DNA of 64,000 nucleotides, taken from an uncultured Spirochaetia bacterium. GTDB taxonomy: Bacteria > Desulfobacterota_D > UBA1144 > Nemesobacterales > UBA2774. Made by a program: the position numbers and the translations under genes. This document shows, piece by piece, positions 1 through 36,249 of this stretch; within the stretch, counting starts at the first letter, position 1, and each line of letters starts with the position of its first letter. Location: assembly GCA_964586675.1 (NCBI GenBank), contig CAZPHQ010000004.1, positions 3,031-67,030 of the forward strand, read 5' to 3'. The notes below the pieces were generated by a model. That model was not told the DNA's origin. It saw nothing but the letters and a program-made list of their open reading frames with translations, and ran no database searches.

Positions 1-832
1 CGGAACGGAGATCACCGTTGCTGAAATGTCCTCGGGGCTCATGCCCGGCGCGGACAGGGATCTCGTCCGGATACTCCAGAAAAGGATCGAGGGAATATAC
101 AAAGCCGTGATGCTGGAGACGAAGGTCACGAGCCTTAAGGAAATCGAAAACGGCATGTTGGCCACTGTCGAGAAAATAAACGACAAACCCGTCCAGATGG
201 CGTTCGACAAGGTGCTCGTTTCCGTCGGCAGAAAGCCCAACAGCGAGGGCCTCGGGCTTGAAAAGACCGCAGTCGAAATAGATGCGAAGGGATTCATAAA
301 GGTGAACGAGGAGCGGCGCACTAAGGAGCCAAGCATCTTCGCCATAGGGGACGTCGCCGGGGAGCCTATGCTCGCCCACAAGGCGACCCACGAGGGGAGG
401 GTGGTTGCGGAGGTGCTCGCAGGGAAGAAGTCCGCCTTCGAGCCCAACGCGATACCGGCCGTCGTTTTCACAGACCCCGAGATCGCGTGGTGTGGGCTCA
501 CAGAAACCGAGGCCCGCGAAAAGAAGGTACCGTTCACGATAGCGAGATTCCCCTGGGCCGCATCGGGAAGGGCCTCGACGCTCGACCGCCCGGACGGCGT
601 GACGAAGCTCGTTTTGGAGCCGGAGACAGGGCGCGTTCTCGGCGTCGGGATCGCCGGGGTCGGCGCGGGAGAGCTCATTTCCGAGGGGGTCCTCGCCGTC
701 GAGATGGGCGCGCTCGCCGAAGACATCGCGCTGTCGATTCATCCCCATCCGACGCTCTCCGAAACCTTCATGGAAGCGGCGGAATCGTTCGTCAGCTCCA
801 GCACACATTTCTACAAGACAAAAAAATCCTGA
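1..832 (+). CDS. lpdA: Dihydrolipoyl dehydrogenase (E3), C-terminal part; 5' end lies outside the window
   Basis: The frame is open from the window edge. FAIGDVAG...AHKA.HEG is the NAD/central domain, and the HPHPTLSE...E dimerisation-domain signature lies near the C-terminus, typical of pyridine nucleotide-disulfide oxidoreductases. Confidence 0.85.
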   Translation, partial: GTEITVAEMSSGLMPGADRDLVRILQKRIEGIYKAVMLETKVTSLKEIENGMLATVEKINDKPVQMAFDKVLVSVGRKPNSEGLGLEKTAVEIDAKGFIKVNEERRTKEPSIFAIGDVAGEPMLAHKATHEGRVVAEVLAGKKSAFEPNAIPAVVFTDPEIAWCGLTETEAREKKVPFTIARFPWAASGRASTLDRPDGVTKLVLEPETGRVLGVGIAGVGAGELISEGVLAVEMGALAEDIALSIHPHPTLSETFMEAAESFVSSSTHFYKTKKS

Positions 833-852
833 ACCTTAGGAAGACAAAAGCT

Positions 853-2376
853 ATGAATGAAATCGCAATCGCGGAAGCCGTAGAGCAGCACGAAAGGGAA
901 ATCGCGCACATACGCATAACGCCGGAAAAGAGCCACATAAAGGCGCTCGTGGATATGGTGACCGGCATCTCCATATCGAACGGCATGGGAGCGGCCGAGG
1001 CGGAAAGGCTGGACAAAGTCCTCGCCGACATACTCGACAATATTGTGCGCCACGGTTTCGAGGGCGACACGCGAAAACCCGTCGAGGTAATCATATACCG
1101 GCGGCTCCACTCGCTCGTGATCGCCGTCGAGGACAAGGGCCTTCCCTTCGATTATGAGAAGCTCGAAAAGGGCGAGGAGGCGAGGTTCAGGGCCCACATG
1201 TCGCGCCACTACGCGGACGAGGTCAGGTTCAGGAGCCTCGGGAAGGGCGGCAACAGAACGGAGATAACGAAGAACCTTCCCGGCTCCGACATACGTAAGC
1301 AGATGGACATCTCGGAGCACCACGAGCACGTCAAATGCCCCGAGGCCCCGCACGACGAGAAGATAGACGTCGGGATGCTCGATACGAATGGGATTCACGA
1401 GCTCGTGCGTCTCGTATTCAAGTGCTACGGCTATACCTACGCGAACGACTTCATGTATTTCCCCGAGCAGATAGAGTCGCTTTTAAAATCGGGGCTCATG
1501 CTGTCGTCCGGCGCTTACAACAGCAGGAACGAGCTCATCGGGCACGTCGGCTTCATATTCAGCGCTCCGGGGGCGAGGGTCGCGGAATCGGGAGAGGCCG
1601 TCGTCGACCCGAGGTACAGGGGGCGCGGCATATTCCAGATGATGAAGAACTATCTCAAGGACTTCGTCGTGCGGGAGGACGTCGTCGGCATCTACGGCGA
1701 GGCTGTAACGGTGCACCCATACAGCCAGAAGGGGAGCATCGAGCTCGGAGGCCGGGAGACAGGATTCCTGCTAGGTTACAGTCCGGGGACGGTGAAGTTC
1801 GAGAGCATATCCGAAAACGAGAGGCCAAGGCGGCAGTCTGTCGCGATGATGTTCACTCCGCTTCTACCGAGCGGGCCAGTGACGATATACGTACCCGAGG
1901 CTTATGGGCAGGTGATTGCGGAAATATACGACAGGCTCGGCTACGGCAGGAACATCATAGCCGAGAACGACCACACCGGCGTAAAGGGGAGGCACCCCGG
2001 CGCGGCGTCGGTATCGATAAGGCACGACCACAACCAGGCGCGGATAATAATCGAGAAAATCGGCAAACTAACTATAGACGAGATTCGGTTTCACTTAAAG
2101 CACCTGACAGTCGAGCGGTTCGACTGCATATACGTCGACCTCCCCCTGAAACAGAAGGGCGCGGGGTACGTCGGATCGGTCCTCCGGGACATGGGATTTT
2201 TCTTCGGATGCGTGATACCGGAATACAGCGACGGGGACGTTTTCAGGCTTCAGTATCTTAATAACGTCGAGATTTCGAAGGACGACATCAAGACGGCGTC
2301 CGAGTTCGGGCAGAGGCTGCTGGATACTATCTTCGACGACATGGAAAGGGCGGGAGCTAGGCTGGCAAGAAAGTAA
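853..2376 (+). CDS. Fusion protein: N-terminal GHKL ATPase / anti-sigma-factor-like serine kinase domain (RsbW/SpoIIAB-like) + central GNAT acetyltransferase domain + C-terminal domain of unknown function (possibly a degenerate second GNAT)
   Basis: ATG at 853 is preceded by AGGAAG. The N-terminus (LDKVLADILDNIVRHGFEGD...VEVIIYRR..LVIAVEDKGLPFD) follows the GHKL/HATPase_c_2 pattern. AVVDPRYRGRGIFQMM is the GNAT acetyl-CoA binding motif A (R/QxxGxG/A). The longer ORF-track call from 487 is an in-frame upstream extension overlapping lpdA. Confidence 0.6.
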   Translation: MNEIAIAEAVEQHEREIAHIRITPEKSHIKALVDMVTGISISNGMGAAEAERLDKVLADILDNIVRHGFEGDTRKPVEVIIYRRLHSLVIAVEDKGLPFDYEKLEKGEEARFRAHMSRHYADEVRFRSLGKGGNRTEITKNLPGSDIRKQMDISEHHEHVKCPEAPHDEKIDVGMLDTNGIHELVRLVFKCYGYTYANDFMYFPEQIESLLKSGLMLSSGAYNSRNELIGHVGFIFSAPGARVAESGEAVVDPRYRGRGIFQMMKNYLKDFVVREDVVGIYGEAVTVHPYSQKGSIELGGRETGFLLGYSPGTVKFESISENERPRRQSVAMMFTPLLPSGPVTIYVPEAYGQVIAEIYDRLGYGRNIIAENDHTGVKGRHPGAASVSIRHDHNQARIIIEKIGKLTIDEIRFHLKHLTVERFDCIYVDLPLKQKGAGYVGSVLRDMGFFFGCVIPEYSDGDVFRLQYLNNVEISKDDIKTASEFGQRLLDTIFDDMERAGARLARK

Positions 2377-2398
2377 AGACTGCTGCGGGATCGGGGGA

Positions 2399-3112
2399 TT
2401 ACGACTTCCCGTGCACCGGCACGAAGGCCCCGCTGACGGCGCGGGCATCCTCCGAGGACAAAAACGCTATCACCTTCGCGATATCCGACGGCGGCACCCA
2501 TTTCGAATAATCACTTTCAGGCATCGCCGCCCTGTTACCGGGCGTGTCAATGGTTCCGGGGACGACTGCGTTCACGGTGATGTCGTGCTCGCGGAGCTCT
2601 TCGGCCATCGACTGCGTCAGGTTAAGAACGCCGGCCTTCGATGCCCCGTATGCGCTCATGCGAGCAGAGCCCTTCAGCGCGGGCCGGGAGCCGACGTTGA
2701 TTATCCTCCCCCAGCCGTTCATTATCATCACCGGAATAACTGCCTTCGAGCAGAGAAAAGCTGTCTTGAGATTTACGCTCATCATCGCGTCCCAGTCGTC
2801 CTCGGCAGTAGCCCCTATCGGACCCATTGCGAATCCGCCGACGACGTTAACCAGGATGTCGATGCGTGAAAATGTTTCCTCGGTTTTGGATACGAGCTTC
2901 GCGACGTGGGTCTCCCGTGTGACGTCGGCCTTTCCGAATACCACTCTCTCGCCGAAAGACTGCCGTAGCGCAAACGAGGCGTCGAGCTCTTCCTCGGTAA
3001 GATAGGTGCACATGACATTCGCGCCGCGCGTAAGGAGCTCGAACGTAACGGCCCTTCCGAGAGCGCCCGCTCCTCCCGTCACTATCGCAGTTCTGCCCCC
3101 AAGCTGGTTCAT
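2399..3112 (-). CDS. Short-chain dehydrogenase/reductase (SDR) family oxidoreductase
   Basis: Rossmann TGGAGALG motif directly after the start, then Y/K catalytic region (SAYGASKAG). The ATG at 3112 has GGAG 7 nt upstream, and the longer start at 3160 adds an unconserved extension. Confidence 0.8.
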   Translation of the reverse strand: MNQLGGRTAIVTGGAGALGRAVTFELLTRGANVMCTYLTEEELDASFALRQSFGERVVFGKADVTRETHVAKLVSKTEETFSRIDILVNVVGGFAMGPIGATAEDDWDAMMSVNLKTAFLCSKAVIPVMIMNGWGRIINVGSRPALKGSARMSAYGASKAGVLNLTQSMAEELREHDITVNAVVPGTIDTPGNRAAMPESDYSKWVPPSDIAKVIAFLSSEDARAVSGAFVPVHGKS

Positions 3113-3256
3113 CTGGACTCCGTGAATACTGGTATAATTATCAGGCCCGTCAGCCTTCAAATCAATACCGTTTCGCCCGTCTTGACTTTCACGACGCGAT
3201 AGCCATACAATAAATTCAGACCCGGGACAGCCGTAACGACCCGCGAGAGATACCGT

Positions 3257-3598
3257 ATGGAATTATTCATATCCATGAAAGCCGAACCCCTGAACAAGGG
3301 CATCTACTTCAAGGAAAGCAATATCATGCAGATGCCCACCGCCCAGTCGGCCGGGTTCTTCATAGCCGAATACAGGGAAGGCGATCCCGAAAAGCTCCGC
3401 CTCCTCCGGATGTATTCCGGCATTCTGAAGTCGAGGCTTAGCGGCGACGCCGAGTATTTCCTGGAAGAAACCGTGATCGGCTTCAAGCTCTATAAAAAAG
3501 TGGACGAGAGCAGGGAATACATGGAAGCGTGGGAAGACTGGGTCGTTTTTTCGCGCCAGCTCCTCCGAGAATTAAAGGACGTGGTCGAAGGGGACTAG
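3257..3598 (+). CDS. Hypothetical small protein (113 aa; the real start may be the internal ATG at 3326, which has an AGGAAA RBS)
   Basis: ORF only; no motif recognised. Codon usage is consistent with the surrounding genes. Confidence 0.3.
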   Translation: MELFISMKAEPLNKGIYFKESNIMQMPTAQSAGFFIAEYREGDPEKLRLLRMYSGILKSRLSGDAEYFLEETVIGFKLYKKVDESREYMEAWEDWVVFSRQLLRELKDVVEGD

Positions 3599-3738
3599 CC
3601 CCGGATTCTTGCATTTCGCCCTATCTGAGCTAATATTTTTCTTCATCTCGAACGACAAGCCGTTGTCTATCTCACCCAAGCTATTGAATATTATCGGAAT
3701 CGACGGGGCTTTCGGGGCTTAAGGAGCATTAGCGCCAA

Positions 3739-6585
3739 ATGTCAGAGGCCAAGAAGGTAAATTACAAGGACACGCTGAACCTGCCGCGTACGGACTTCCC
3801 GATGAAGGCCAACCTCGCCCAGAAGGAGCCCGAATTTCAGAAGCGCTGGAAGAAGATCGACCTCTACCAGAGAATCCGTGAGAAATCGGAGGGTAGGGAG
3901 AAGTTCGTTTTTCACGACGGCCCGCCCTACGCCAACGGACCGATACACCTCGGGCATCTCCTGAACAAGGTGCTGAAGGATATTGTCGTAAGGTCGCGCA
4001 CCATGCTCGGCTACGACGTCCACTTCGTCCCCGGCTGGGACTGCCACGGCCTCCCGATAGAGCACAAGGTCTTAAAGGAGCTTGGCGAGGAGGCGAAGGA
4101 CCTTTCACGCCTCAAGATAAGGTATAAGTGCCAGTCGTATGCCGAGAAGTATGTGAAGCTCCAGGCCGGGCAGATGCAGAGCCTCGGCACGACGGGGGAT
4201 TACGAGAATCCGTATCTTACTATGGTGCCTGGGTACGAAGCGGGCGTGCTCGAAGTTTTCGCAGAGCTTTTAAAGCGCGGCCTCATATACAGGGACTTGA
4301 AGCCTGTCCACTGGTCTATAGAAAACAGGACGGCGCTCGCCGACGCGGAGCTGGAATATTACGAAAGAGTAGACAGGAGCGTTTACGTTCTATTCGAAGT
4401 TGAAAATACGGACGCGCTGCCTCCGGGGCTTAATGTCCCGGAGGGCGGAAAGCCTTCGCTTCTGATTTGGACGACGACCCCGTGGACGCTTCCGGCGAAC
4501 CTCGCGGTCGCCATATCGCCTGACGGCGACTACGGGCTTTATAAAGTTACGAAGAACGGAAAGGAAATATTGGCGATACTCGTCGACAATCTCGCCGAGA
4601 CGGTATTCAAGAAGGCCGGGGCGGAAGAGTACGTGAAACTCGGAGGCGCTAAAGGCAGGGACATAGCGGCCGCCGGGGTGAAGTACGTGCACCCCTTCGC
4701 CGGCCGGACGAGCAGGGTTGTCACCGCCGATTACGTACTCTTCGACGAGGGCACGGGGCTTGTACATACCGCCCCCGGGCACGGCGTCGAGGACTACCAG
4801 ACCGGGCTCAGGGAAGGGCTCGACATATACTGCCCCGTTCTCGGCGACGGCACGTTCGACGACACGGTGCCGGAATGGCTCCGGGGCATGGATGTCTGGA
4901 AGGCGAACGGCGTAATCGCCGGGCGTCTCGCGGAATCGGGACACCTCTTCCACGAAGAGGAATACCCGCACAGCTACCCCCACGACTGGCGGAGCAAGTC
5001 GCCGACGATATTCCGCGCGACTGAGCAGTGGTTCATCGCCGTCGATAAGAAAATGGACGAGTTCGGAGGCTCTCTCAGGGACCTCGCGCTCAAATACTGC
5101 GAGTCTGGAATAGACTTCTACCCCGAGTGGGGGCGGAACAGGCTCCGGGGCATGCTCGAATCGAGGCCCGACTGGTGCATAAGCCGCCAGCGCGCGTGGG
5201 GCCTCCCGATACCGGCGTTTGTGAACGATAAGGGCGAGTGCCTTCTCACGCCCGCGTCCGTGAACGTCATAATCGAAAAAATAAGGCAGAAGGGCTCAAA
5301 CCTCTGGTTCCAGGGGGAGGACGAGGAAATACTCGAAGGGTACGACCCGCTCTCCGACCCCGACGCACCGGCATGGGCGAAGGAAGAGGGCGCGCTCGGG
5401 AAGCTCACGCGCGGGATGGACATATTCGACGTTTGGTTCGAGTCGGGCTCGTCGTGGCATGCCGTCCTCGAGCAGAGAGGTATTGGATTCCCGGCGGACC
5501 TTTACCTCGAAGGCTCGGACCAGCACAGAGGATGGTTCCAGCTATCCCTCCTGCCTGCGCTCGGCACGCGCGGAAGGCCGCCCTTCAAAGCGCTCCTCAC
5601 GCACGGCTTCATGGTCGACGCGCAGGGGAGAAAGATGAGCAAGTCCGGCGGGAACGCGCTCGAAGTCGATGAGCTCTTAAAGCAGCACGGAGCCGACATA
5701 TGCAGGTGGTGGGTGAGCTCGCTCAAGTATACGAACGATATAAAAGTCGACTGGGAATTCTTCCGCGTCGCCGGGGACGAGTATAGAAAAGTCAGGAACA
5801 CGATAAGGTTTCTCCTCGGCAACATAAGCGACTTCAACCCCGAGACGGATGCCGTCGGATTCGGAGAGGAGGACAGATATTCCCTCGACGCGTGGGCAAT
5901 GACGGAGCTCGCGAAATTCATACGCGAGACGGTCGAGGCCTACAGCGTCTTCCAGTACAAGCTGGCGAACGAAATAATATTCAGATTCTGCTATGACACA
6001 CTGAGCGCCGTTTACCTCGCAGCCACGAAGGACAGGCTCTACTGCGAGAGGTCTGACAGCCGGAAAAGGCGGAGGTCGCAGACGGCGATGTACCGCATCA
6101 CGGACGCCCTCGTAAGGCTCCTCGCCCCTATACTCGTTCACACGGCCGACGAGGCTTATCTCTCGCTGAAGGGACTCCCCCCGGATTCAGAAGAGAGCGT
6201 TCACCTGACGGGTCTGCCCGAGTTCATTGACGTTCCGTCGGACCAGGCATGGGACGAAGTTCTGGAGCTCAGGGGAAGGGTGCTGAAGGCGCTCGAAGAG
6301 GCCAAGGATGCGCAGGGAATATCCAATCCCCTGGACGCGGGCGTCGAGGTAACTGTTGACGGAGGGCTTTACAAAAAGCTGAAGCCGTTCGAGCCGGAGC
6401 TGCCCGACATCGCGGGCGTGAGCAGGTTCGAGATCCTCGAAGGGAAAGAGGTTCGAATAAAAATCGTCGACCTTTCGGGAGAGCCGCGCTGCGAGCGCTC
6501 GTGGAAGAGGGACGGGACAGTTAAGGAGCGCCCGGGCGGCGGACTACTCTCCGACAGGGACGCCGAAGCGCTGGGCGTGGATTAA
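3739..6585 (+). CDS. ileS: Isoleucine--tRNA ligase
   Basis: Class I aaRS HIGH motif (PYANGPIHLGH) and KMSKS motif. Size ~948 aa with the IleS-typical editing region (GTGLVHTAPGHG) and C-terminal Cys-containing tail. Confidence 0.95.
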   Translation: MSEAKKVNYKDTLNLPRTDFPMKANLAQKEPEFQKRWKKIDLYQRIREKSEGREKFVFHDGPPYANGPIHLGHLLNKVLKDIVVRSRTMLGYDVHFVPGWDCHGLPIEHKVLKELGEEAKDLSRLKIRYKCQSYAEKYVKLQAGQMQSLGTTGDYENPYLTMVPGYEAGVLEVFAELLKRGLIYRDLKPVHWSIENRTALADAELEYYERVDRSVYVLFEVENTDALPPGLNVPEGGKPSLLIWTTTPWTLPANLAVAISPDGDYGLYKVTKNGKEILAILVDNLAETVFKKAGAEEYVKLGGAKGRDIAAAGVKYVHPFAGRTSRVVTADYVLFDEGTGLVHTAPGHGVEDYQTGLREGLDIYCPVLGDGTFDDTVPEWLRGMDVWKANGVIAGRLAESGHLFHEEEYPHSYPHDWRSKSPTIFRATEQWFIAVDKKMDEFGGSLRDLALKYCESGIDFYPEWGRNRLRGMLESRPDWCISRQRAWGLPIPAFVNDKGECLLTPASVNVIIEKIRQKGSNLWFQGEDEEILEGYDPLSDPDAPAWAKEEGALGKLTRGMDIFDVWFESGSSWHAVLEQRGIGFPADLYLEGSDQHRGWFQLSLLPALGTRGRPPFKALLTHGFMVDAQGRKMSKSGGNALEVDELLKQHGADICRWWVSSLKYTNDIKVDWEFFRVAGDEYRKVRNTIRFLLGNISDFNPETDAVGFGEEDRYSLDAWAMTELAKFIRETVEAYSVFQYKLANEIIFRFCYDTLSAVYLAATKDRLYCERSDSRKRRRSQTAMYRITDALVRLLAPILVHTADEAYLSLKGLPPDSEESVHLTGLPEFIDVPSDQAWDEVLELRGRVLKALEEAKDAQGISNPLDAGVEVTVDGGLYKKLKPFEPELPDIAGVSRFEILEGKEVRIKIVDLSGEPRCERSWKRDGTVKERPGGGLLSDRDAEALGVD

Positions 6586-6618
6586 TTTAGACAGCAATCC
6601 GAACCCGCGCTGTCCTCG

Positions 6619-6960
6619 TTATCCCGGGGGCCACTCCATCTGCCGTCCGCCGAGGATGTGAAGGTGGATGTGATACACGGCCTGCCCGCCATCCTTGTTC
6701 GTGTTTATCACGACGCGATAGCCCGAATCCGAGAAGCCCTGATCCCTGGCTATCTCGGCCGCCTTGACCAGCAGATGCCCGAGGAGCGGCGCGTCCTCTT
6801 CAGTTGCTTCCGCGAGTGATTTTATCTCCTTCTTCGGGACGAGAAGTATGTGCTGCGGGGCCTTCGGGTCGATGTCGCGAAAGGAGATGCAGAGCTCGTC
6901 CTCGTAGACTATGACTGCCGGGATTTCCCTATTTATTATCTTCGTAAAAATCGAGCTCAT
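6619..6960 (-). CDS. HIT-family (histidine triad) nucleotide hydrolase
   Basis: HxHxHxx motif (VYHIHLHILGG) at the C-terminus; ~113 aa. Confidence 0.85.
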   Translation of the reverse strand: MSSIFTKIINREIPAVIVYEDELCISFRDIDPKAPQHILLVPKKEIKSLAEATEEDAPLLGHLLVKAAEIARDQGFSDSGYRVVINTNKDGGQAVYHIHLHILGGRQMEWPPG

Positions 6961-7025
6961 CTTGCACTCCTGAACAGTTTCTTGTCTCGCAGGTATCCAA
7001 GCATAACACGGCGGAAAGACACGGG

Positions 7026-8090
7026 CTATAAGTTTATGCCGGGCCAGCCCTCTATCGGATCAGTCGAACGGACGACGTGCATTCCCGCGGCCTCGAATTC
7101 GCCGAATGCCGCATCGGCCTCGTCGGTATAGTCGATCACGTTCGGAACGACGACGGGCGACGTGCAGTCTTCGAGGAGATATATCTTCCTGACGAGCGTG
7201 GCGTCTCCCTCGCGCGCCTTCTTGAGAAGATCGGCGATGGTCCACGCGACGCAGTGGCTTTTCGCCTGCCCGGCGATTACGACGGCGTCGAAGTCCGCAA
7301 GCTTCCCGTAAATCGCCTCCGACGCCATTGGTTTCTGAAATAGCGACTCTGTTCTCTGTTTCAGCGGCTTCCCGTCGGGCCCCGTCGATACTTCCGGCGC
7401 GAGGACGGAGTAGTGCTCCGTCAGCGGATGGTCGCCCTTGACGTGTATGTCGGGCTGGCTGTGCCGTGCTATCGAGTGAAAGAAAACGGCCTCCTCGACG
7501 CACGAGGCGAGGGCGTGCCCGATGCCGCCCAGCATTGCGTGGTAGGGCCACACGGTTAGCTCGTACTTCCCGGATTTCCGGAGCTCCTTCACGTAATGAA
7601 GGAGATGTTTTTCGATGTAGTCGTCGGCGTATGCAAGGTTACTGCTCAGCATCGTGTTGAATTTCCATTTACCGCTTTCTATGTCTTCGACCGATATGTT
7701 CGTGTAGGGGGCCGGGTGCTCGCCTGTGGCGTTAACGAAAAATATCCCGTGGAATATCTGCATCGCCTGGTGGGTGTCCATCGTCGGCGCGATCTCGGTT
7801 ATTGCCCCGAGGTTCCTGTATATGAACTCGCAGAGCCTCCGGTTGTCGTCCACTGCCCCCGTGCCCGAGCGGCCTCTGACGAAAAGCTCGAACCCGGGAA
7901 TGCAGAACGTATTCTGCGCGTCCACTATCACGAGCGAGACCCGGGGCGCGTCACCCGAGGCGGGGGCGAGGCCGTGCACGTCGGCCCATTCCCGTGCCGA
8001 CCGGGCAAGCGCTTCGTACTCGACCCGCCAGACCTCTCCCGCCTTTTCGGGTTTGTAATGTGAGGGCAGGGGCAGTTTCAGTTTGTTCAT
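7026..8090 (-). CDS. Isochorismatase-family cysteine hydrolase with N-terminal extension
   Basis: [11 protein letters not shown] (catalytic Asp region) and [16 protein letters not shown] (catalytic Cys region) are arranged as in the isochorismatase/nicotinamidase fold. Confidence 0.6.
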
Positions 8091-8232
8091 GAAGAGCTCC
8101 GTTAATGCTATCTCCCCGCTTCCGCGTGTATAAATCTAACAGAAGGGGCCGCGTTCTCCCAATCCACGGTTTGAAAAAAATATGCCTATAGACGATAATG
8201 AAATAGTCCGCTGTCCTGCGGTCGAGATTGAG

Positions 8233-8985
8233 ATGAGAGCTAATCTTTTCATTACCTGCCTCGTGGATACGTTCTTCCCGCAGGTGGGCGAAAGCATGGT
8301 GAAGGTCCTCGAAAGGCTCGGCGTAGACGTCCACTTTCCCGGAGAGCAGACGTGCTGCGGCCAGCCCGCTTTTAACAGCGGATACAGGAACGACGCGCGC
8401 GCAGTCGCCGAGAGGTTCGTCTCGGTCTTCGGGGATGCCCTTTCGAAGGGCGGGGAAGAGGAATCGTACGTGGTTTGCCCCTCCGGATCGTGCACTACCA
8501 TGGTTAAAGTATTTTATAAGGAATTATTCCATAACGAGTCTTTGATGCTTGATAAATTAGACTATATCGTCGGCAGGACGTACGAATTCTCGGAATTCCT
8601 TGTAAAGGTCCTCGGGAGAACGGACGTCGGAGCGAGATACGACGGCGTAGTCACGTATCACGACTCCTGCCACCTCCTCCGTGAGCTCGGAGTAAAGGAC
8701 GCGCCGAGGGAGCTTATCGCATCCGTTGAGGGGCTCGAGTTCAGGGAGATGGCGCTCCACGACTCCTGCTGCGGCTTCGGCGGAACATTCTCGATAAAAT
8801 TCCCGAAGGTGTCAGTCTCCATGCTCGACGAGAAGATAGAATCGATAACCGGGACAGGGGCAGATACGGTCGTCTCGTCAGACATGGGATGCCTCATGAA
8901 TATAGGCGGCGCGATAAGCAGGCGAAAGCTCCCAGTGAAGGTGATGCACTTGGCGGAGCTACTGGCAAGTACCGGTAAAGGGTAG
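8233..8985 (+). CDS. lutA: Lactate utilisation protein A (Fe-S oxidoreductase with CCG cysteine-rich domains)
   Basis: LFITCLVDTFFP...EQTCCGQPAFNSGY matches the LutA/YkgE N-terminus. The start is placed at MRANLF by alignment to B. subtilis LutA; the ORF track begins at 8182. Confidence 0.8.
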   Translation: MRANLFITCLVDTFFPQVGESMVKVLERLGVDVHFPGEQTCCGQPAFNSGYRNDARAVAERFVSVFGDALSKGGEEESYVVCPSGSCTTMVKVFYKELFHNESLMLDKLDYIVGRTYEFSEFLVKVLGRTDVGARYDGVVTYHDSCHLLRELGVKDAPRELIASVEGLEFREMALHDSCCGFGGTFSIKFPKVSVSMLDEKIESITGTGADTVVSSDMGCLMNIGGAISRRKLPVKVMHLAELLASTGKG

Positions 8986-9009
8986 GGACCGAAAATCAGC
9001 CACGAGAGA

Positions 9010-10434
9010 GTGAATTTCGAAAGGGACTCCGCGCGCGCCGTCGAAGACAAGAATCTTCAGCGGGCGCTCGTAAACGTTACAGACCGCTTCAGGGCCGCGA
9101 GGAAGCGAGCGAGCGACGAAACGCCCGGGTGGGACGCCCTCAGGGACCGCGCCCGTGAGATCAAGAAGCATACGATTGCGCATTTGGGCGATTACCTCCT
9201 CCAGCTCGAAGAGAACGTCGGGAAGGCGGGCGGACACGTCCACTGGGCGAGAGATGGCGAAGAAGCGCGAAATATCATAATCGACATCGCGCGCAGGAAC
9301 GGTGTGAAATCCGTCGTCAAGAGCAAGTCCATGGCGACGGAGGAGATAGAGCTCAACGCCGGCCTCGAGGCCGCCGGGATAAGGGCAGTTGAAACTGACC
9401 TTGGAGAGTACATCATACAGCTCGCCGGCGAGCACCCGTCGCACATAATCGCCCCCGCCATACACAAGACCCGTCACGACATATCGGAGCTCTTCGCGGA
9501 GAAGCTCGGTGTGCCGTACCTTAGCGAACCGCAGGAGTTGACGAAGGTGGCGCGTGAAAGGCTCAGGGACGAATTCCTCGGCGCGGGGATGGGCGTTTCG
9601 GGAGCGAACTTCGGCGTCGCCGAGACGGGCACAATCGTCATCGTCGAGAACGAGGGCAACGCGCGCCTGACGACAACTGTGCCCCGCATACACGTCGCCC
9701 TCATGGGCATCGAGAAGATGCTTCCGCGATTCGGGGACCTTTCGCTGTTCCTTCCCCTGCTTGTGAGAAGCGCGACGGGGCAGAAGACGTCGACATACAT
9801 ATCGCTCATCACCGGCCCACGGCGGGCCGGGGACAAAGACGGCCCCGAGGAATTTCACCTTGTTCTTCTCGACAACGGGAGGTCCGGTATACTAGCCAAC
9901 CCCGAAACGAGAGAATCGCTATACTGCATAAGGTGCGGGGCATGCCTCAACAACTGCCCCGTCTACAGAAAGGTGGGCGGGCACTCCTACGGATGGGTGT
10001 ATTCCGGCCCGATAGGCGCGATTATAAATCCCCAGCTCATGGGCATAGACGAGGCCCCGGAGCTTCCGTTCGCGTCTTCCCTCTGCGGGGCGTGCAGGGA
10101 CGTCTGCCCTGTGAAGATCGACTTTCCGAAAGTCCTGCTGGAGCTGAGGAGCGAGGTGGTAACCCGGAAAGAAAAGACCGGCGGGGCGAGCGCCCTGCTC
10201 GAAGCCCTGTCGTTTAGATTCTGGCGCGCGGTCGTCATGCGCAGAAAAATATACGAGCTCGCGCTCAGGCTTTCTTACCATGTGCAGCGGCCGTGGAAGG
10301 CGAGGGGAGGGGTGTTGAGATCCCTCCCGTATCCCTTTTCGAGGTGGACCGACGAGAGGGATTTTCCGGCTGTTAGCGAAACGCCCTTCAGGGAAAGGTG
10401 GAAGAAAATGAGCCGGAAAGGAGACACGCTGTGA
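9010..10434 (+). CDS. lutB: Lactate utilisation protein B (4Fe-4S ferredoxin-type iron-sulfur protein)
   Basis: Strong full-length similarity to LutB/YkgF as I recall it: EFHLVLLDNGRS, CIRCGACLNNCPVYRKVGGHSYGWVYSGPIGA, CGACRDVCPV. Confidence 0.9.
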   Translation: MNFERDSARAVEDKNLQRALVNVTDRFRAARKRASDETPGWDALRDRAREIKKHTIAHLGDYLLQLEENVGKAGGHVHWARDGEEARNIIIDIARRNGVKSVVKSKSMATEEIELNAGLEAAGIRAVETDLGEYIIQLAGEHPSHIIAPAIHKTRHDISELFAEKLGVPYLSEPQELTKVARERLRDEFLGAGMGVSGANFGVAETGTIVIVENEGNARLTTTVPRIHVALMGIEKMLPRFGDLSLFLPLLVRSATGQKTSTYISLITGPRRAGDKDGPEEFHLVLLDNGRSGILANPETRESLYCIRCGACLNNCPVYRKVGGHSYGWVYSGPIGAIINPQLMGIDEAPELPFASSLCGACRDVCPVKIDFPKVLLELRSEVVTRKEKTGGASALLEALSFRFWRAVVMRRKIYELALRLSYHVQRPWKARGGVLRSLPYPFSRWTDERDFPAVSETPFRERWKKMSRKGDTL

Positions 10435-11120
10435 CGACGGGCTCCCGCGAAGAGATACTCCACAGGATTAGAAAGGGCCTCGGGCGAGGGGAGGGCGCCG
10501 GGCACGCGGATTCGGAAGCCCCGCTGCCTCGGAATTCCGGGCCGTCTTCGGGTGCCCGCGAGCAGCTATCCAAAGACGACCTCGCCGATGTATTCGCGCA
10601 ATCGCTCACGGGAGTCAACACGTCCGTCTATAGAGAGAACGGGACGGACGGTATACGTGAATTCATAGCAGGCTTTGTCAGCGAAAGGGGCCTGGAATCG
10701 TTTTCGATATGGGAGACGGAGTTTTTAAACTCGCTCGGCATAAAAGAATCCCTCGAAGGCAGTGGGCTCGCCATTAAATCCGCCGAGAACAAGGCCGAGA
10801 TCGCGCTTTCGAGCGTGGGAATCACGGAGGCGGACTACGCCATAGCCGACACTGGCACGCTCGTTCTGCTCTCGGGCCCCGAGAGGCCGAGGGGCGTATC
10901 GCTGATACCGCCCGTACACCTTGCAATAGTCAAAAAAGAAAATATAGTGAGTAATATAGAAGAGTTATTTGGCATAGTTAATAAATTTTATGAAGACCAT
11001 AAAACCACCCCGGCCTCCGCTACATTTATCACAGGCCCCAGCAGAACGGCCGACATAGAGCTCAACCTGACCCTCGGGGTTCATGGCCCGAAAGAGCTCC
11101 ACGTCCTTATAGTATGCTGA
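10398..11120 (+). CDS. lutC: Lactate utilisation protein C (LutC/YkgG family)
   Basis: Third gene of a lutABC arrangement, in frame and overlapping the lutB stop (GTG at 10431 overlaps TGA in a GTGA junction, so the real start may be 10431). LUD-domain-like ADTGTLVL motif. Confidence 0.75.
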   Translation: MEENEPERRHAVTTGSREEILHRIRKGLGRGEGAGHADSEAPLPRNSGPSSGAREQLSKDDLADVFAQSLTGVNTSVYRENGTDGIREFIAGFVSERGLESFSIWETEFLNSLGIKESLEGSGLAIKSAENKAEIALSSVGITEADYAIADTGTLVLLSGPERPRGVSLIPPVHLAIVKKENIVSNIEELFGIVNKFYEDHKTTPASATFITGPSRTADIELNLTLGVHGPKELHVLIVC

Positions 11121-11135
11121 TTTGAATGTGTCCGA

Positions 11136-11645
11136 CTAATTCCCACCCGGAAAGTCGATGTAAGGTCCTTCCGGTGCCTCGCCAGGCGGAAGGTATTCGG
11201 GCATCGGCTCACCTGAAGACCCGAGCGCCTTCACGAAATAGTGCATGTCGGCCAGGTCAGATTCCTTCATATCGTGGAGTATCCACCACGGCATCGGCGG
11301 CATCCACTTGGTGTTTTTCGCAAGGTGAATCCACTCCTCCTCCGTCATCGAGCTCATGAGCAGCCTGAGATTTGATGCGTAAGTGGTGCCCCACGGACCG
11401 TGCCAGCCGAGAGGGCTGCCGGTGAGCCATTTTTCGATCGGGATATTCCCTCCCGCTTCAGGATATCCTGCCGTATGGCAGTCGTTGCATCCGGCCATCC
11501 TCGTCATGTACTCCCCGTTGGCGAACCTTTCCTGCTCCGTTCTTTTCACGGGCGCGGTGGTTTTTTCAGGCGTGCATGAAACAAAAAAGGCCGCTCCCGA
11601 AAGGGCCGCGGCCACGATTAACAGACTCGATATGATAAATCTCAC
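11136..11645 (-). CDS. Monohaem c-type cytochrome, probable lipoprotein
   Basis: CNDCH haem-binding motif (CxxCH); N-terminal signal peptide ending FFVSC (lipobox-like); Met-rich C-terminal half. Confidence 0.6.
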   Translation of the reverse strand: MRFIISSLLIVAAALSGAAFFVSCTPEKTTAPVKRTEQERFANGEYMTRMAGCNDCHTAGYPEAGGNIPIEKWLTGSPLGWHGPWGTTYASNLRLLMSSMTEEEWIHLAKNTKWMPPMPWWILHDMKESDLADMHYFVKALGSSGEPMPEYLPPGEAPEGPYIDFPGGN

Positions 11646-11847
11646 CTCGACCTCCCTACATTAGTTTATGTGTTTTCCGCGTGCGCTCATAAACCTGGAG
11701 ACCGCGACAATTCACCCTCGAATCGCTCGTCTCGCGCGGGATGACATAACATATAAGAAAGGACAGATAAAGGCAATAGGGCAGAATCCGGCTCGTCCGA
11801 ATCTTTGTCAGCCGTCTATCGAAGACACAGTGAGAAAAGTCGGAGGG

Positions 11848-28375: not shown

Positions 28376-28436
28376 ATCCGCGCAGGTCATGGGAGCCTGG
28401 CGTCCCATAGAGCGGAACCGGCGCGCAGCGGAAAAA

Positions 28437-29267
28437 ATGTTCGACGCAATATTCAACTACAGATACGTTTGGGACACGCTCGATATAGTCCTCGTGGCGT
28501 TCATCATCTACTACGTCCTCCGGATGCTCGAAGGCACGAGGGCGCTACAGGTGCTCTTCGGCTTCGTCCTCCTCGTCGTCCTGTATTACGTCTCCCAACG
28601 CGGCCTCTTCACGCTTAACTGGATACTCGGGCAGTTCCTGGGCTCGATTATCATCATCGTCGTAATCATATTCCAGAACGACATACGCCGCGGGCTCGCG
28701 GCCATCGGGCGGCGGCCCTTCCTTTTGAAAATGTCGCCCGGCAAATCGAAAGAGCAGTACCTCGAAGAGGTGGTCAAGGCTTCGAGCTACCTCGCCAACA
28801 GGTACATAGGCGCGCTCATAGCGATAGAGCGCAATCAGACGCTGTCCGACTACATCGAAATAGGAATGAGGGTGGACGCTCTCGTTTCGAGAGAGCTCAT
28901 AATCAGCATATTCAATCCCTCGTCGCCGCTTCACGACGGGGGTATCATAATCGTCGGCAACAGGATAATATCCGCCGGTTCGTTCTTCCCGCTGACGACT
29001 GACCCCGACCTCGAAAGGGAGCTCGGCACGCGGCACAGGGCGGCGCTCGGGCTATCGTCCGAGACGGACGCCGTCGTCATAGTCGTCTCGGAGGAAACCG
29101 GCACGATATCCCTGGCGCTGGGCGGCGAGATAACGCGCGGCCTCGACGCGACGTCGCTCCACAACAGTCTCCTGGACTCGCTCGAGATCAAGCGGCCGAA
29201 ATCGAAAAAATCCGGGCTCGTGAACAGGCTCATCAATAAAGAGGAGGGTGAGGATACGAACCTCTGA
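28437..29267 (+). CDS. cdaA: Diadenylate cyclase CdaA (DAC domain, membrane-anchored)
   Basis: Three N-terminal TM helices followed by DAC-domain motifs (GALIAIER, HDGGIIIVGNRIISAG, GTRHRAALGLSSETDAVVIVVSEETG). Confidence 0.85.
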   Translation: MFDAIFNYRYVWDTLDIVLVAFIIYYVLRMLEGTRALQVLFGFVLLVVLYYVSQRGLFTLNWILGQFLGSIIIIVVIIFQNDIRRGLAAIGRRPFLLKMSPGKSKEQYLEEVVKASSYLANRYIGALIAIERNQTLSDYIEIGMRVDALVSRELIISIFNPSSPLHDGGIIIVGNRIISAGSFFPLTTDPDLERELGTRHRAALGLSSETDAVVIVVSEETGTISLALGGEITRGLDATSLHNSLLDSLEIKRPKSKKSGLVNRLINKEEGEDTNL

Positions 29268-29275
29268 CGCGCTTC

Positions 29276-30253
29276 ATGACACGGTGGCTGAAAAAAAGAG
29301 ATGCCTACGGCTCGAGGGAAGGCGAAAAAGAGCCCATATACAGGGACCTGGGCAAAAAGGTGCTCGCCCTTCTGATAGCCATATCGCTATGGCTCGTGGC
29401 CAACCTTCAGCATGATGTGGAAAAGAACGTCGCCATAGACATAAACTACACGAACCTCCCGCCGGGACTCATCGTCCTTAACAATCCTCCCGAAAAGCTC
29501 AACATCCGGGCGCGCGGCCCGAGGAGCCAGCTGTCGTCCGTATCCCCGGAGGACATGGTATTTACGATAGACCTCGCCAACGTAAGCGAGGGGGCGTCTG
29601 TCTTCGAAATAAGGACCGACATGATAATACCGCCGAGGGACGTACAGGTGACTGGCGTCAGCCCCTCCGAAATAAGAATAGAGCTCGACAAGCTCGCGCA
29701 GAAGGAAGTCCTCGTCGCGCCGAAGATCGGTCCGCCCGATCCCGGGTACGAAATCGTCGGGCAGTCGCAAATCTCCCCCGGCATGGTCAGGATAAGCGGG
29801 CCGGCCTCGCTTCTAGGCAGGATAAACGAGCTGGGCGGCGACCAGATATCGCTCGAAGGGGAAAAGTCGAGCTTCTCGGTGGAGATACCGCTCCGGACCC
29901 CATACACGCTCGTCAACATACTCGGCCGGAACACGGCCCGCGTCACGATCGACTTAAAGGAAACGATACTCGAAAAGGAGTTTAACAACCTCGACATCAA
30001 CTTCGTCAATTTCGGCAACATCGATTTTGAAACGGTCGGCAACATCGAAACCGAGGTGGCTTTCGAGGGCCCCTACAGCATAATCAACAAACTCAACAGT
30101 AAGGATATAGAATTATATGTGGATGGCTCGGGGCTGGCGGAGGCAGGGGACAAGAAAACCCACAAACTCGACGTCAACGTCGAGTACCCGCACAAAGGGG
30201 TGCTCAAGATGACGAAGCAGTCGCCGAGGACCATAAACATCAGGTTGAACTAG
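29276..30253 (+). CDS. cdaR: CdaR/YbbR-domain regulator of diadenylate cyclase
   Basis: Position between cdaA and glmM; one N-terminal TM segment followed by repeated YbbR-like beta-rich modules. Confidence 0.7.
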
Positions 30254-30269
30254 AGAGGAGCCAGGAATT

Positions 30270-31652
30270 TTGAGCGGCAAAAGGAAAAAACTTTTCGGAA
30301 CGGACGGGATACGGGGCGTAGCAAACCAGGAGCCGATGACGCCCGAGATGAGCCTCAGGCTCGGAAAGGCGCTCACATATCTCTTAAAGCAGCGCGCGGA
30401 AGGGCAGCACACGCTGAAGATAGTTATAGGCAAAGACACGAGGCTCTCGGGATATATCTTCGAGCAGGCGCTCTCGTCCGGCATAGCGGCCATGGGGGCC
30501 GACGTGCTCCTCGTAGGACCTCTCCCCACCCCTGCCATAGCGTTCATCACGCAGAGCATGCGCGCCGACGCCGGCATAGTTATTTCGGCCTCGCATAATC
30601 CATACGAAGACAACGGGATCAAGATATTCGACAGGTACGGCTACAAGCTCCCCGACGAAGAGGAAATACGCATCGAGGAGATGATGCAGAACGGCGAGAG
30701 CGATTACCTTAAAGCCTCCCCGGGCGACATAGGCAAGGCCTACAGGATAGAAGACGCCCCCGGGAGATATGTAGTCTTTGCGAAGAATTCCTTCCCGCAT
30801 AACCTCACCCTCGAAGGTATAAAGATCGTGCTCGACTGCGCGAACGGCGCGGCGTATAAGGTTTCGCCGACGATATTCCAGGAGCTCGGGGCCGAACTCG
30901 TAACGATAGGCTCGAGCCCTGACGGTAAGAATATAAACACGGACTGCGGATCGCTTAATCCCGAGCTTTTAAGGAGCCGGGTGCTCGAAACGGGGGCTGA
31001 CCTCGGCATTGCGCTCGACGGCGACGCCGACAGGGTCATATTCTGCGACGAGACGGGCGATATAGTCGACGGCGACAAGATAATCGCCATCTGCGCCGAC
31101 GAGATGATACGTAACGGGAGCCTCCGGGGCAACACCGTCGTCACGACTCTCATGAGCAACATGGCGCTCGAGAATTTTGTAAAGGGCAAGGGGGTCGATT
31201 TCGTGAGGACGGAAGTCGGCGACAGGTACGTATCCGAAGCGATGCGCGCGCGGGGATGTAACCTCGGCGGCGAGCAGTCGGGGCACATCATTTTCCTCGA
31301 CCACACCACGACGGGCGACGGCACGCTCGCAGCGCTCCAGGTGCTAGCGATAATGAAAAGGGAAGAAAAAAAACTTTCCGAGCTCGCGAGGATAATAGAC
31401 CTCTACCCCCAGCTTCTTCTTAACGTGAGAATAAGGGAGCGTAAAGAGCTCAGCGAGATAAAGAACCTCGACGGCCTCATCCGCTCGAACGAAAACAGGC
31501 TTTCCGGAAAGGGGCGCATAAATATCAGGTATTCAGGCACCGAGCCGATATCGAGGGTCATGGTCGAAGGCGAGGACGTTACTCTGATAAAGGAGATAGC
31601 CGACGAGCTTGCGGACGCGATACAAAAAGACATAGGAGCGGAAGCGTTATGA
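30270..31652 (+). CDS. glmM: Phosphoglucosamine mutase
   Basis: Active-site [16 protein letters not shown] (phospho-serine loop) and GDGDADR metal-binding loop. Confidence 0.95.
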
Positions 31653-34379: not shown

Positions 34380-35414
34380 ATGCCCAAAGTAGGCATAGTC
34401 ATCGACAAGCTCTTCGTCGATCACGATAACGGCATGGGACATCCAGAATCGAGCGAGCGTATACTCGCGATAGCCGATATGCTGAGGCACACAGGCATGA
34501 GGGACGAGGTCACGATACTGGAGCCGAGGGACGCGGCGAAGGAAGAGATATGCCTCGTTCACACGCCGGAGCATTACGAGAAAATGGCGGCGACAAGGGG
34601 AAGGCCGCGCGTATTCCTCGACGCCGACACCACGACCAGCCCGGCATCGTTCGACGCGGCTGTGAGGGCGGCGGGCGGGATGCTGTCGTCCATAGACGCG
34701 ATACTAGAAGGCAGTATAGACCGGGCGTTTCCGTTCGTGAGGCCGCCTGGACATCACGCCGAAGCCGACAGGGCGATGGGCTTCTGCCTCTTTAACAACG
34801 CCGCGGTCGGCGGCGCGTATCTTACGCAGCTAAAAGGCGTCGAGCGGGTGCTCATAGTCGACTGGGACGTCCACCACGGGAACGGCACTCAGCACATGTT
34901 CTACGATAGAAACGATGTGCTTTACTTTTCTACGCACCAGTTCCCGTTCTACCCCGGCACAGGGGCGCTCCACGAAACAGGCTTGGGAGAGGGCGAGGGA
35001 TATACTGTTAACGTCCCGCTGCCGGAAGGCATGGGCGACGCCGAATATATCAAGATATTCTCCGAGATACTGGGCCCTGTTATAGAACAGTATAAGCCGG
35101 GATTCATACTCGTCTCCGCCGGGTTCGATACCTTCTTCGAAGACCCGCTCGGCGGGATGCGCGTCACCCCCGAAGGCTTCGCGCAGCAGGCGAGGTTCAT
35201 GCTCGACGCAGCGGATAAACATTCCAATGGTAAGATTGCATTTATACTCGAAGGCGGATACAACCTCGACGGGCTATGGATCTCGACGAAGGAAGTGCTC
35301 GAAGAGCTCCTCGACAAGAAGCGGACCGATTACGACATCGGCCAGCAGGCGACGGCGGCCGACGAAGTGATCGAAAAGGTGAAAAAGGAGCACTCCCGGT
35401 TCTGGGAGTTTTAG
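34380..35414 (+). CDS. Histone deacetylase-family protein (AcuC/AphA-like deacetylase)
   Basis: HDAC class motifs HPESSERI, RPPGHHA, GFCLFNNAAVG and DWDVHHGNGTQ (Zn-ligand Asp/His). Confidence 0.8.
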   Translation: MPKVGIVIDKLFVDHDNGMGHPESSERILAIADMLRHTGMRDEVTILEPRDAAKEEICLVHTPEHYEKMAATRGRPRVFLDADTTTSPASFDAAVRAAGGMLSSIDAILEGSIDRAFPFVRPPGHHAEADRAMGFCLFNNAAVGGAYLTQLKGVERVLIVDWDVHHGNGTQHMFYDRNDVLYFSTHQFPFYPGTGALHETGLGEGEGYTVNVPLPEGMGDAEYIKIFSEILGPVIEQYKPGFILVSAGFDTFFEDPLGGMRVTPEGFAQQARFMLDAADKHSNGKIAFILEGGYNLDGLWISTKEVLEELLDKKRTDYDIGQQATAADEVIEKVKKEHSRFWEF

Positions 35415-36248: not shown

Positions 36249-36249
36249 G

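Follow-up and report, generated by a model that had tools for sequence, protein, structure and literature searches.

A protein family joining an RsbW-like GHKL domain to a GNAT acetyltransferase module, encoded at the end of the pyruvate dehydrogenase operon in Dadabacteria-type genomes

The 64,000-nucleotide (nt) stretch of contig CAZPHQ010000004.1 analysed here, referred to throughout as the window, comes from the genome assembly GCA_964586675.1 of an uncultured bacterium, and carries close to its start a complete gene (853 to 2376, + strand) for a protein of 507 amino acids (aa). Its open reading frame (ORF), Pfam matches, homologues and an AlphaFold model together define an RsbW-like GHKL domain, a GNAT domain and a degenerate GNAT-like domain, following one another in a single chain. 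The ORF lies in frame +1 and runs from the ATG at 853 to the stop codon at 2374-2376; a longer in-frame ORF from GTG 487 was rejected, as it overlaps lpdA, and homologues begin at Met 853. The preceding gene, truncated by the window start, is the 3' part of lpdA (26-832, +), the partial ORF of which encodes the C-terminus of dihydrolipoyl dehydrogenase, the E3 component (Pyr_redox_2, E 1e-19; Pyr_redox_dim, E 3e-35). The lpdA stop codon (TGA, 830-832) is separated from ATG 853 by a spacer of exactly 20 nt (833-852), the distance given by the first-pass annotation, which had been made from the sequence alone. Within this spacer, sequence reading identified a Shine-Dalgarno-like AGGAAG (838-843, +) 9 nt before the ATG. 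A scan of positions 1-3800 detected nothing resembling a promoter or terminator on the + strand within the spacer or close to it, although such consensus-based scans constitute weak evidence. Together with the similarly short gaps found in 27 related loci, this makes the proposed co-transcription with lpdA plausible.

The combination of a HATPase_c_2 domain, a GNAT motif A (RGRGIF) and an unassigned C-terminal part, described for this polypeptide in the same annotation, was confirmed by Pfam domain calls. HATPase_c_2 was matched at aa 24-140, with 32.3 bits against a gathering cutoff of 27.4, and Acetyltransf_1 at aa 190-280, with 21.3 bits against a cutoff of 20.7, which is marginal by sequence. 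An AlphaFold2 model of the whole protein, built on a 39-sequence alignment (A1), confirmed both of these folds, with a mean predicted local distance difference test (pLDDT) score of 84 and a predicted template-modelling (TM) score of 0.82. By sequence, the full-length protein matched nothing in the PDB, NCBIfam returned only RsbW/SpoIIAB matches, all of them sub-threshold, and the PADLOC defence models did not match the protein. The three-part architecture is, with very little room for doubt, both real and evolutionarily conserved.

The N-terminal domain (aa 14-141; 892-1275, +) belongs to the RsbW/SpoIIAB-type GHKL (HATPase_c_2) domains both by its Bergerat (GHKL) alpha/beta fold and by sequence homology, the family profile matching Bacillus subtilis RsbW (PDB 6m36) at E 6e-18 and SpoIIAB at ~1e-10. 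Alignment with stand-alone RsbW-like proteins and with RsbW from the PDB placed the N-box equivalent at D59-I-L-D-N63-I-V (1027-1047, +), which keeps the acid at the N-4 position (D59) and the Mg-binding Asn (N63) of the RsbW E-x-x-x-N. The G1-like motif E93-D-K-G-L-P-F-D100 (1129-1152, +; ADEGDSFD in RsbW) was located through alignment A1 and a second alignment (A2) that spans the clades and contains two stand-alone RsbW-like proteins encoded beside distant family members. This motif has the D-x-G-x-x-F form, with D94 and G96 invariant; Met apart, these are the only invariant N-domain columns in A2, further columns being invariant in the 39 sequences of A1. The last strand of the domain reads L129-G-K-G-G-N-R-T-E137.

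The G2 box (GxGxG), by contrast, is missing. In its place is a remodelled ATP lid at aa 108-115 (EEARFRAH; 1174-1197, +), recognised from alignment A2, a per-locus table of motifs and low pLDDT, in which A110-R111-F112-R113 stands where the stand-alone RsbW-like proteins have G-G-L-G and the Cloacimonadota members S-G-L-G. Relative to the two aligned stand-alone proteins, the lid is shorter by 9 residues, and its region (aa 100-120) is the least confident part of the model, with pLDDT falling to 51-56. This absence of the G2 box extends to all Dadabacteria, Nitrospirota and Rubrobacter members of the family, the box being kept in Cloacimonadota-type relatives, such that three clades can be distinguished. 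Clade A, comprising the Dadabacteria-type and Nitrospirota members and including the window, has G-E-[DE]-x-R-F-x-S-[YF]-[LM]-S instead of G2, and most of its members keep E/D-x-x-x-N, a few having K or T at the Asn position. Clade B, from Rubrobacteraceae and other Actinomycetota, has lost both the acid at N-4 and the G2 box, for which GEDxTVLExLH is substituted. Clade C, from Cloacimonadota, Dehalococcoidales, Ignavibacteria, Sumerlaeota and Gemmataceae, has the canonical E-A-C/S-L-N-V-I-E-H and S-G-L-G-M-V-L-M. Of 129 N-domain sequences compared, made up of 120 family representatives no shorter than 440 aa and the reference rows of A2, with its two stand-alone RsbW-like proteins, only ~46 (~36%) combine the acid, the Asn and the GxG; approximately two thirds of family representatives lack the Asn and/or the G2 box.

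With A-R-F-R in place of the G2 glycines and a lid shortened by 9 residues, an active serine kinase is unlikely. On these motifs, the N-terminal domain of the window's clade is likely to be kinase-inactive, that is, a pseudokinase. Hence the description of the protein as a kinase, and as an agent of dual post-translational modification, is not upheld for this clade. The ancestral N-terminal domain would have been a working RsbW-type kinase. The change to the lid is read as remodelling rather than decay, because GE[DE]xRF is conserved across clade A and is under purifying selection, and the resulting pseudokinase module may function in nucleotide binding, partner binding, or dimerisation and autoinhibition.

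A conserved linker (DIRxxMDIxEHxxH, aa 146-170; 1288-1362, +), seen in the alignment and modelled with a helix at 153-160, joins the GHKL domain to a catalytic-type GNAT domain (aa 172-336; 1366-1860, +). The GNAT fold of the latter was recovered by Foldseek, with E 1e-8 and a target TM score of 0.84 to RimI and other GNATs. Its motif A, the acetyl-CoA pyrophosphate-binding loop, was placed by the alignments at P253-R-Y-R-G-R-G-I-F261 (1609-1635, +), in which R254-Y-R-G257-R-G259 corresponds to R/Q-x-x-G-x-G/A, and RGRGIF to aa 256-261. R254, R256 and F261 are invariant, G257 is conserved in at least 90% of sequences, and the motif aligns with the VVDPxYRGxGL of solved GNATs. A profile of the GNAT and C-terminal domains together (GNAT+C) matched the PDB only marginally, at a best E of ~0.03 and through the VVDPxYRGxG segment alone. 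The middle domain is a bona fide GNAT with an intact acetyl-CoA P-loop, and it is probable, judging from these motifs, that the protein is an active acetyltransferase. The residues presumed to lie on the acceptor side are near-invariant across phyla: Y192-G-Y-T-Y196, H288-P-Y-S-Q-K-G, E302-T-G-F-L-L-G-Y309 and R326-R-Q-S in the GNAT domain, with the further stretches D392-H-N-Q-A and G461-D-V-x-R-L-Q-Y-L-N-N in the C-terminal domain.

The C-terminal domain (aa 338-507; 1864-2373, +) consists of a degenerate GNAT-like alpha/beta fold (343-469) and a terminal helix (484-506). These ~170 aa matched no Pfam family and no PDB sequence, even when searched with a profile. Modelled alone, the domain had a pLDDT of 92.8, and the order beta-alpha-beta-beta-beta-alpha-beta-alpha-beta-beta followed by the long terminal helix. 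The junction of beta4 and alpha3, where GNATs have their P-loop, reads E-K-I-G404-K-L-T, with no R/Q-x-x-G-x-G/A, and the best match among solved structures was the N-terminal domain of NUDT6/7. The model therefore describes a GNAT-like fold without a P-loop, and the suspicion that the C-terminal third might be a second, degenerate GNAT is supported at the level of fold.

This architecture recurs across a large family. Among 5.8 billion proteins searched, 713 homologues were found at E<=1e-3; the best 120 of these were nearly all 495-520 aa long, with 95-100% query coverage and identities down to 39%. With the GNAT+C profile, 895 representatives of 50%-identity clusters were matched at E<1e-30, rising to 1874 at the looser threshold of E<1e-10; these representatives are mostly 480-510 aa in length, with the GNAT+C module at ~160-495, meaning an N-terminal domain of equal size is present. 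In a scan of one genome per GTDB species, relatives were found in 152 species, from Dadabacteria/Thermodesulfobacteriota-labelled metagenome-assembled genomes (MAGs), Nitrospirota, Rubrobacteraceae and other Actinomycetota, Cloacimonadota, Dehalococcoidales, Ignavibacteria, Gemmataceae and Sumerlaeota; the family was also found in Chloroflexota. The names attached to homologues are generic ("ATP-binding protein", "GNAT family N-acetyltransferase", "anti-sigma regulatory factor" or "RsbW"), and literature searches for fusions of HATPase_c_2, RsbW or anti-sigma domains with GNATs or lysine acetyltransferases, and for partner switching with GNATs, found no description of the architecture in the library searched, nor did searches for Dadabacteria with pyruvate dehydrogenase. 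Together, these proteins make up an extensive family of putative three-domain acetyltransferases that had not been described before.

Purifying selection acts on each of the three domains. The closest relative (locus L007) shares 95% aa identity across the protein and 88.5% nt identity over 11.8 kb, and the codon differences between the two copies are mainly synonymous (synonymous/non-synonymous: N-terminal domain 23/4, GNAT 46/4, C-terminal domain 37/11). The possibility that the gene was a fusion artefact of two ORFs is excluded by hundreds of independent full-length homologues across phyla, which put the gene well outside anything that chance would yield. The sole split copy is the orthologue in a long-read MAG (L026, 9731-11468), where the RsbW-like part is out of frame with a 352-aa GNAT+C ORF (P0078), through either a frameshift error or pseudogenisation. 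Stand-alone GNAT+C proteins without the N-terminal domain do exist in several lineages, and the idea that these are split versions, with the N-terminal domain encoded by a separate gene nearby, was rejected, as six such loci had neither an N-domain nor a STAS signal in their vicinity. Hence the GNAT+C module appears to be an autonomous catalytic core. One set of 347-aa stand-alone proteins (P0269-P0282, in the cluster of P0189; L089/L090, 6001-7044) carries the Joint Genome Institute (JGI) label "serine/threonine-protein kinase RsbW" despite having no GHKL domain, presumably an annotation-transfer error from the fused family.

The genes preceding lpdA in the operon can be read from relatives of the window. 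Positions 1-11763 are collinear with L007, which has aceE and aceF directly before lpdA, and the order aceE-aceF-lpd-gene was read in L007, L002, L004 and L005. The encoded E1 is of the 894-aa AceE type (PDH_E1_N, Transketolase_N and PDH_E1_M), identifying a pyruvate dehydrogenase (PDH) operon. Across 27 Dadabacteria-type loci (42-95% protein identity to the window), lplA and lpd on one strand diverge from aceE, aceF, lpd and the family gene on the other; a convergent short-chain dehydrogenase (SDR) gene comes next, and beyond it a 113-aa hypothetical gene and then ileS. The gap between lpd and the gene is 6-37 nt in 25 of the 27 loci, and 80 nt in L005 and L030, which are two copies of one contig. 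These loci are not independent observations, because synteny extends well past the operon. Upstream of aceE in L002, L004, L005 and L007, and so outside the window, the divergent genes encode a second Lpd paralogue and a lipoate-protein ligase (LplA-B_cat); the locus therefore encodes two E3 genes. Within the window, the SDR gene (2399-3160, -) converges on the family gene with a 22-nt gap, and this adjacency is conserved more widely than the linkage to PDH: two Dadabacteria loci of the CSP1-2 type (L028 and L031) keep the convergent SDR, with no PDH genes among the immediate neighbours.

In other lineages, the gene has different company. An acetyl-CoA hydrolase/transferase (AcetylCoA_hyd_C, E 5e-56) is encoded directly upstream on the same strand in seven Rubrobacteraceae/Actinomycetota-labelled loci, and directly downstream in one Dehalococcoidales locus. 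In Cloacimonadota loci, the gene is followed after 31 nt by one for an AMP-binding acyl-CoA ligase, and L067 has an upstream gene that is putatively enoyl-CoA hydratase-like, as judged from sequence reading only; these neighbours, too, are on the same strand as the family gene. By a rough count, an acyl-CoA-handling enzyme adjoins the gene in ~4 of ~8 lineages, for which a rough estimate, rather than a test, gives a chance of ~1e-3 if such enzymes account for ~4% of genes. Hence the earlier suggestion of a link to a 2-oxoacid dehydrogenase holds insofar as it is real, specific and to an AceE-type aceE-aceF-lpdA operon; it is, however, restricted to Dadabacteria-type genomes, rather than being family-wide.

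The other association suggested by the first-pass annotation, with a partner-switching circuit, found no cognate components at this locus. Pfam searches covered ~55 of the 60 ORFs in the 64 kb window that are 80 aa or longer, and none of these encoded a STAS, sigma-factor or PP2C protein; no sigma-factor gene adjoined any family member examined. Hidden Markov models (HMMs) of STAS domains matched nothing in the window, nor in any Dadabacteria, Nitrospirota or Rubrobacter locus, although these HMMs were of limited sensitivity: they were built from only three to five sequences, being three neighbouring STAS proteins with or without B. subtilis SpoIIAA/RsbV sequences, and were narrow enough for a distant STAS to escape. 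STAS genes were found near family members in only three of ~80-86 loci, all from the distant clade C with canonical kinase motifs. In these loci, a STAS and/or a stand-alone RsbW-like kinase gene adjoins or lies near the family member (L072, 4501-4905 and 9485-9961; L077, 6105-6940; L086, 9590-9931); two of the three have the stand-alone RsbW-like gene as well as the STAS, and in L086 the STAS is directly upstream. This hints that partner switching may operate only in the lineages with canonical kinases.

The protein shares with RsbW and SpoIIAB (HATPase_c_2; PDB 6m36, 1l0o and 1th8) the E/D-x-x-x-N of the N-box, the D-x-G-x-x-F-D of G1 and a terminal G-x-(N/T)-R-T strand, but differs in being fused to two GNAT-type domains, in having A-R-F-R at G2 and a shorter lid, and in lacking a STAS or sigma-factor gene nearby. 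As both the G2 box and a nearby STAS or sigma-factor partner are missing, it is not called an anti-sigma kinase here. Fusion of partner-switching components is known from Mycobacterium tuberculosis Rv1364c, which has RsbU, RsbW and RsbV in one chain (PDB 3ke6), whereas here the fusion is to an acetyltransferase module, with no STAS or PP2C domain. A partner-switching-like module has been reported to control a glycosyltransferase, meaning such modules can regulate enzymes, and not only sigma factors (PMC13555669). This makes it plausible that the clade C architecture is a kinase-controlled acetyltransferase.

The acetyltransferase half of the protein invites comparison with the five types (I-V) of bacterial protein acetyltransferase, among which type III combines an N-terminal sensor with a GNAT and type V has tandem GNATs, with none having an RsbW-like module (PMC8556138). 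The type III sensors are those of the cAMP-GNATs MtPat and MsPat, the ACT-GNATs and the NADP-binding MxKat, and these N-terminal domains gate the GNAT (PMC8556138). The family shares with type III the placement of an N-terminal regulatory domain before a GNAT with motif A, and several of its members are encoded beside acyl-CoA-forming enzymes. The latter are the classical targets of Pat enzymes. None of the described sensor domains (cyclic-nucleotide-binding, ACT or NADP Rossmann) was detected by Pfam in the protein; instead, its N-terminal domain is an RsbW-like GHKL domain of the HATPase_c_2 family, it has an additional pseudo-GNAT, and its GNAT has no detectable sequence relationship to those of the Pat type. 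Hence it resembles type III in layout only. The tandem GNATs (type V Eis, MshD, VipF and NAT16) likewise pair a P-loop GNAT with a second GNAT-like domain without a P-loop, but the second domain here is much more degenerate, and no SCP2-like C-terminal domain and no Pfam Acetyltransf_9/17 signal was found. Alignments with these proteins never extend beyond ~177 residues, so the arrangement of the two domains differs.

The reading that is tentatively preferred, though at a little less than an even chance, is that the protein is an acetyl-CoA-dependent acetyltransferase with a pseudokinase regulatory module, encoded by the last gene of a PDH operon. The GNAT and pseudo-GNAT would form a catalytic unit in which, as in tandem-GNAT enzymes, the pseudo-GNAT serves as a substrate-binding platform, with the acetyl group passed from acetyl-CoA to an acceptor bound at the interface between the two. 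The RsbW-like module, no longer phosphorylating, would have a cis-regulatory role, or dimerise, or bind a partner or nucleotide, and would thereby gate the GNAT, by analogy with the N-terminal sensor domains of the type III lysine acetyltransferases. Because the gene would be transcribed with the PDH genes, and its co-substrate is the PDH product, the dosage of the protein, and its activity via acetyl-CoA, would track acetyl-CoA production. The likeliest targets would be proteins of acyl-CoA metabolism, either a PDH component or an enzyme of a neighbouring pathway, resulting in product feedback by acetylation. Such acetyl-CoA-dependent feedback on PDH, or on neighbouring acyl-CoA metabolism, would be the most economical proposal. 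Whether the substrate is a protein or a small molecule is evenly balanced, and that PDH itself is the acetylation target is doubtful. A more ambitious version is improbable, in which the pseudokinase docks on the complex or senses adenine nucleotides, the GNAT and pseudo-GNAT respond to acetyl-CoA and restrict flux by acetylating E1, E2 or E3, and the ~900-cluster family is a sixth class of bacterial protein acetyltransferase in which an ancestral partner-switching kinase, kept intact in Cloacimonadota-type members, has repeatedly been turned into a pseudokinase. Such control would parallel that by eukaryotic PDK through convergence, with acetylation as its means.

Several observations weigh against the preferred reading. 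All sources of homologues are metagenomes or MAGs, and the family is uncharacterised. Genomic neighbourhoods are heterogeneous: Nitrospirota loci have no metabolic neighbour, and one clade of stand-alone GNAT+C genes (L089/L090) directly follows rpsF-ssb-rpsR-rplI. The Cloacimonadota are anaerobes that may lack PDH, and no PDH genes were found beside the family gene in their loci; hence PDH is not a family-wide partner. Among the closest structural neighbours of the GNAT are acetyltransferases of proteins (RimI, NatA) as well as of small molecules (SpeG, AAC(6'), PaiA), and the invariance of the putative acceptor-side residues may fit one universal substrate, possibly a small molecule, better than lineage-specific protein targets. 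As the acceptor side is near-invariant from Dadabacteria to Actinomycetota and Cloacimonadota, and the structural neighbours are of both kinds, the main rival is a small-molecule N-acetyltransferase. This would act on an amino acid, polyamine, amino sugar or thiol-type metabolite in a pocket between the GNAT and pseudo-GNAT, with the RsbW-like domain as an oligomerisation or regulatory appendage, and the PDH operon providing acetyl-CoA-coupled expression. The stand-alone GNAT+C proteins and the heterogeneous neighbourhoods are also consistent with this explanation, which is a distinct possibility, albeit one less probable than the preferred reading. However, no conserved biosynthetic neighbourhood indicates a metabolite, N-terminal domains with a regulatory role are a usual feature of protein acetyltransferases (PMC8556138), and the neighbours in several lineages come from known classes of acetylation target, such as acyl-CoA ligases.

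The retention of the N-box Asn, and the Asp and Gly of G1, is a further point against a pseudokinase regulatory module, leaving room for nucleotide binding or weak kinase activity. It accords with a bifunctional regulator, in which an active RsbW-type serine kinase and an acetyltransferase act within a partner-switching circuit alongside a STAS antagonist and perhaps also a sigma factor. The N-terminal domain is a true RsbW/SpoIIAB homologue, with D59 and N63 of the N-box and D94 and G96 of G1 kept; distant members from Cloacimonadota, Dehalococcoidales, Ignavibacteria and Sumerlaeota have fully canonical kinase motifs; and three such loci have the STAS and/or stand-alone RsbW-like genes nearby. 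Yet such a regulator is unlikely at this locus, given the clade-wide change of G2 to A-R-F-R and the shortened lid, the loss of the Asn and/or G2 in most representatives, the empty Pfam scan of the window and the similarly empty, if insensitive, STAS HMM searches. A further alternative is sequestration without phosphorylation, as by non-kinase anti-sigma factors, with the RsbW-like domain of an acetyl-CoA-responsive anti-sigma or other sequestering factor binding a sigma factor or a different protein, the release of which is controlled by acetyl-CoA binding or auto-acetylation by the GNAT. Membership of the RsbW/SpoIIAB family, and a remodelled lid motif that is conserved rather than decayed, would suit such a factor, but no sigma-factor gene is present in the window or adjoins the family members examined, and conservation is strongest in the GNAT and C-terminal domains, rather than the N-terminal domain, making it very unlikely.

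The mitochondrial kinases PDK and BCKDK provide the remaining comparison. In eukaryotes, these GHKL kinases bind the E2 lipoyl domains and respond to acetyl-CoA and NADH, while we know of no regulatory phosphorylation of bacterial AceE-type E1. A bacterial analogue would have its GHKL module dock on PDH and inactivate E1 by phosphorylation, with the GNAT sensing acetyl-CoA. The likeness lies in a GHKL-fold protein being genetically tied to the PDH complex, as the last gene after aceE-aceF-lpdA with tight spacing in ~27 loci, and in acetyl-CoA as a plausible input, matching the responsiveness of the eukaryotic enzymes. Membership of the PDK/BCKDK family itself was rejected, there being no BCDHK_Adom3 match, a HATPase_c score of 21.4 bits that falls below the cutoff of 26.4, and no G2 box. 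The protein instead belongs to the RsbW-type branch of GHKL proteins and lacks the PDK N-terminal helical domain, for which there was no Pfam match. Moreover, the clade linked to PDH is exactly the one without the G2 box, and family members are found in places where PDH does not adjoin the gene or is probably absent. A PDK analogue is the least credible of the explanations considered, and highly improbable.

Elsewhere in the window, 32 kb from the acetyltransferase, a gene for a classical Zn-dependent deacetylase of 344 aa (Hist_deacetyl, E 3.5e-96; 34380-35414, +) encodes a possible "eraser" of protein or polyamine acetylation in the same genome. A lutABC-like lactate-utilisation operon (8182-11120, +), encoding a CCG domain protein, a LUD/4Fe-4S LutB-like protein and a LUD protein, comes a few kb after the PDH operon and is syntenic in the Dadabacteria-type loci L001-L005, and the oxidation of lactate by its products would supply pyruvate to PDH. 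An AMP-binding acyl-CoA ligase (61692-63377, +) belongs to the same Pfam family as the ligase downstream of the gene in Cloacimonadota, the likeness being at the family level only. Two hypothetical genes, of 113 aa (3257-3598, +) and 354 aa (7026-8090, -), match no Pfam family, and keep their position by ileS, a HIT gene and the PDH operon in most Dadabacteria-type loci. A conserved cyclic di-AMP module (28389-31652, +) has the classical cdaA-cdaR-glmM order, with a diadenylate cyclase (DAC and CdaA_N), a YbbR-domain regulator and a phosphoglucosamine-mutase-like protein. An IstB-like ATPase, the IS21 helper, and then a 217-aa ORF without a Pfam match (35418-36903, -) may be the remnant of a mobile element. 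A Xer/phage-integrase-type recombinase (40378-41265, +) may be a plain XerC/D, because it adjoins scpA/scpB. The window also encodes a PhaR-type polyhydroxybutyrate regulator (47787-48413, -) and a chalcone-synthase-like type III polyketide synthase (53449-54513, +).

Control of bacterial PDH complexes is attributed mainly to transcription and metabolites, and we know of no dedicated modifying enzyme encoded inside a bacterial PDH operon. The architecture of this protein, and its position in such an operon, are unusual and experimentally tractable, with the computed results leaving PDH regulation as a proposal. Hence a GHKL-derived module and an acetyl-CoA-using enzyme, joined in the fourth gene of aceE-aceF-lpdA, represent a testable candidate for the control of PDH. 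Beyond this operon, the family is both large, with ~900 clusters at 50% identity, and widespread, occurring in no fewer than 152 GTDB species from six or more phyla, and its members are misannotated as "RsbW kinase" or "anti-sigma regulatory factor". It combines the kinase fold of partner switching with acetylation, in an architecture outside the current classification of bacterial acetyltransferases, and its kinase-competent and pseudokinase versions constitute a natural series for the repurposing of GHKL kinases.

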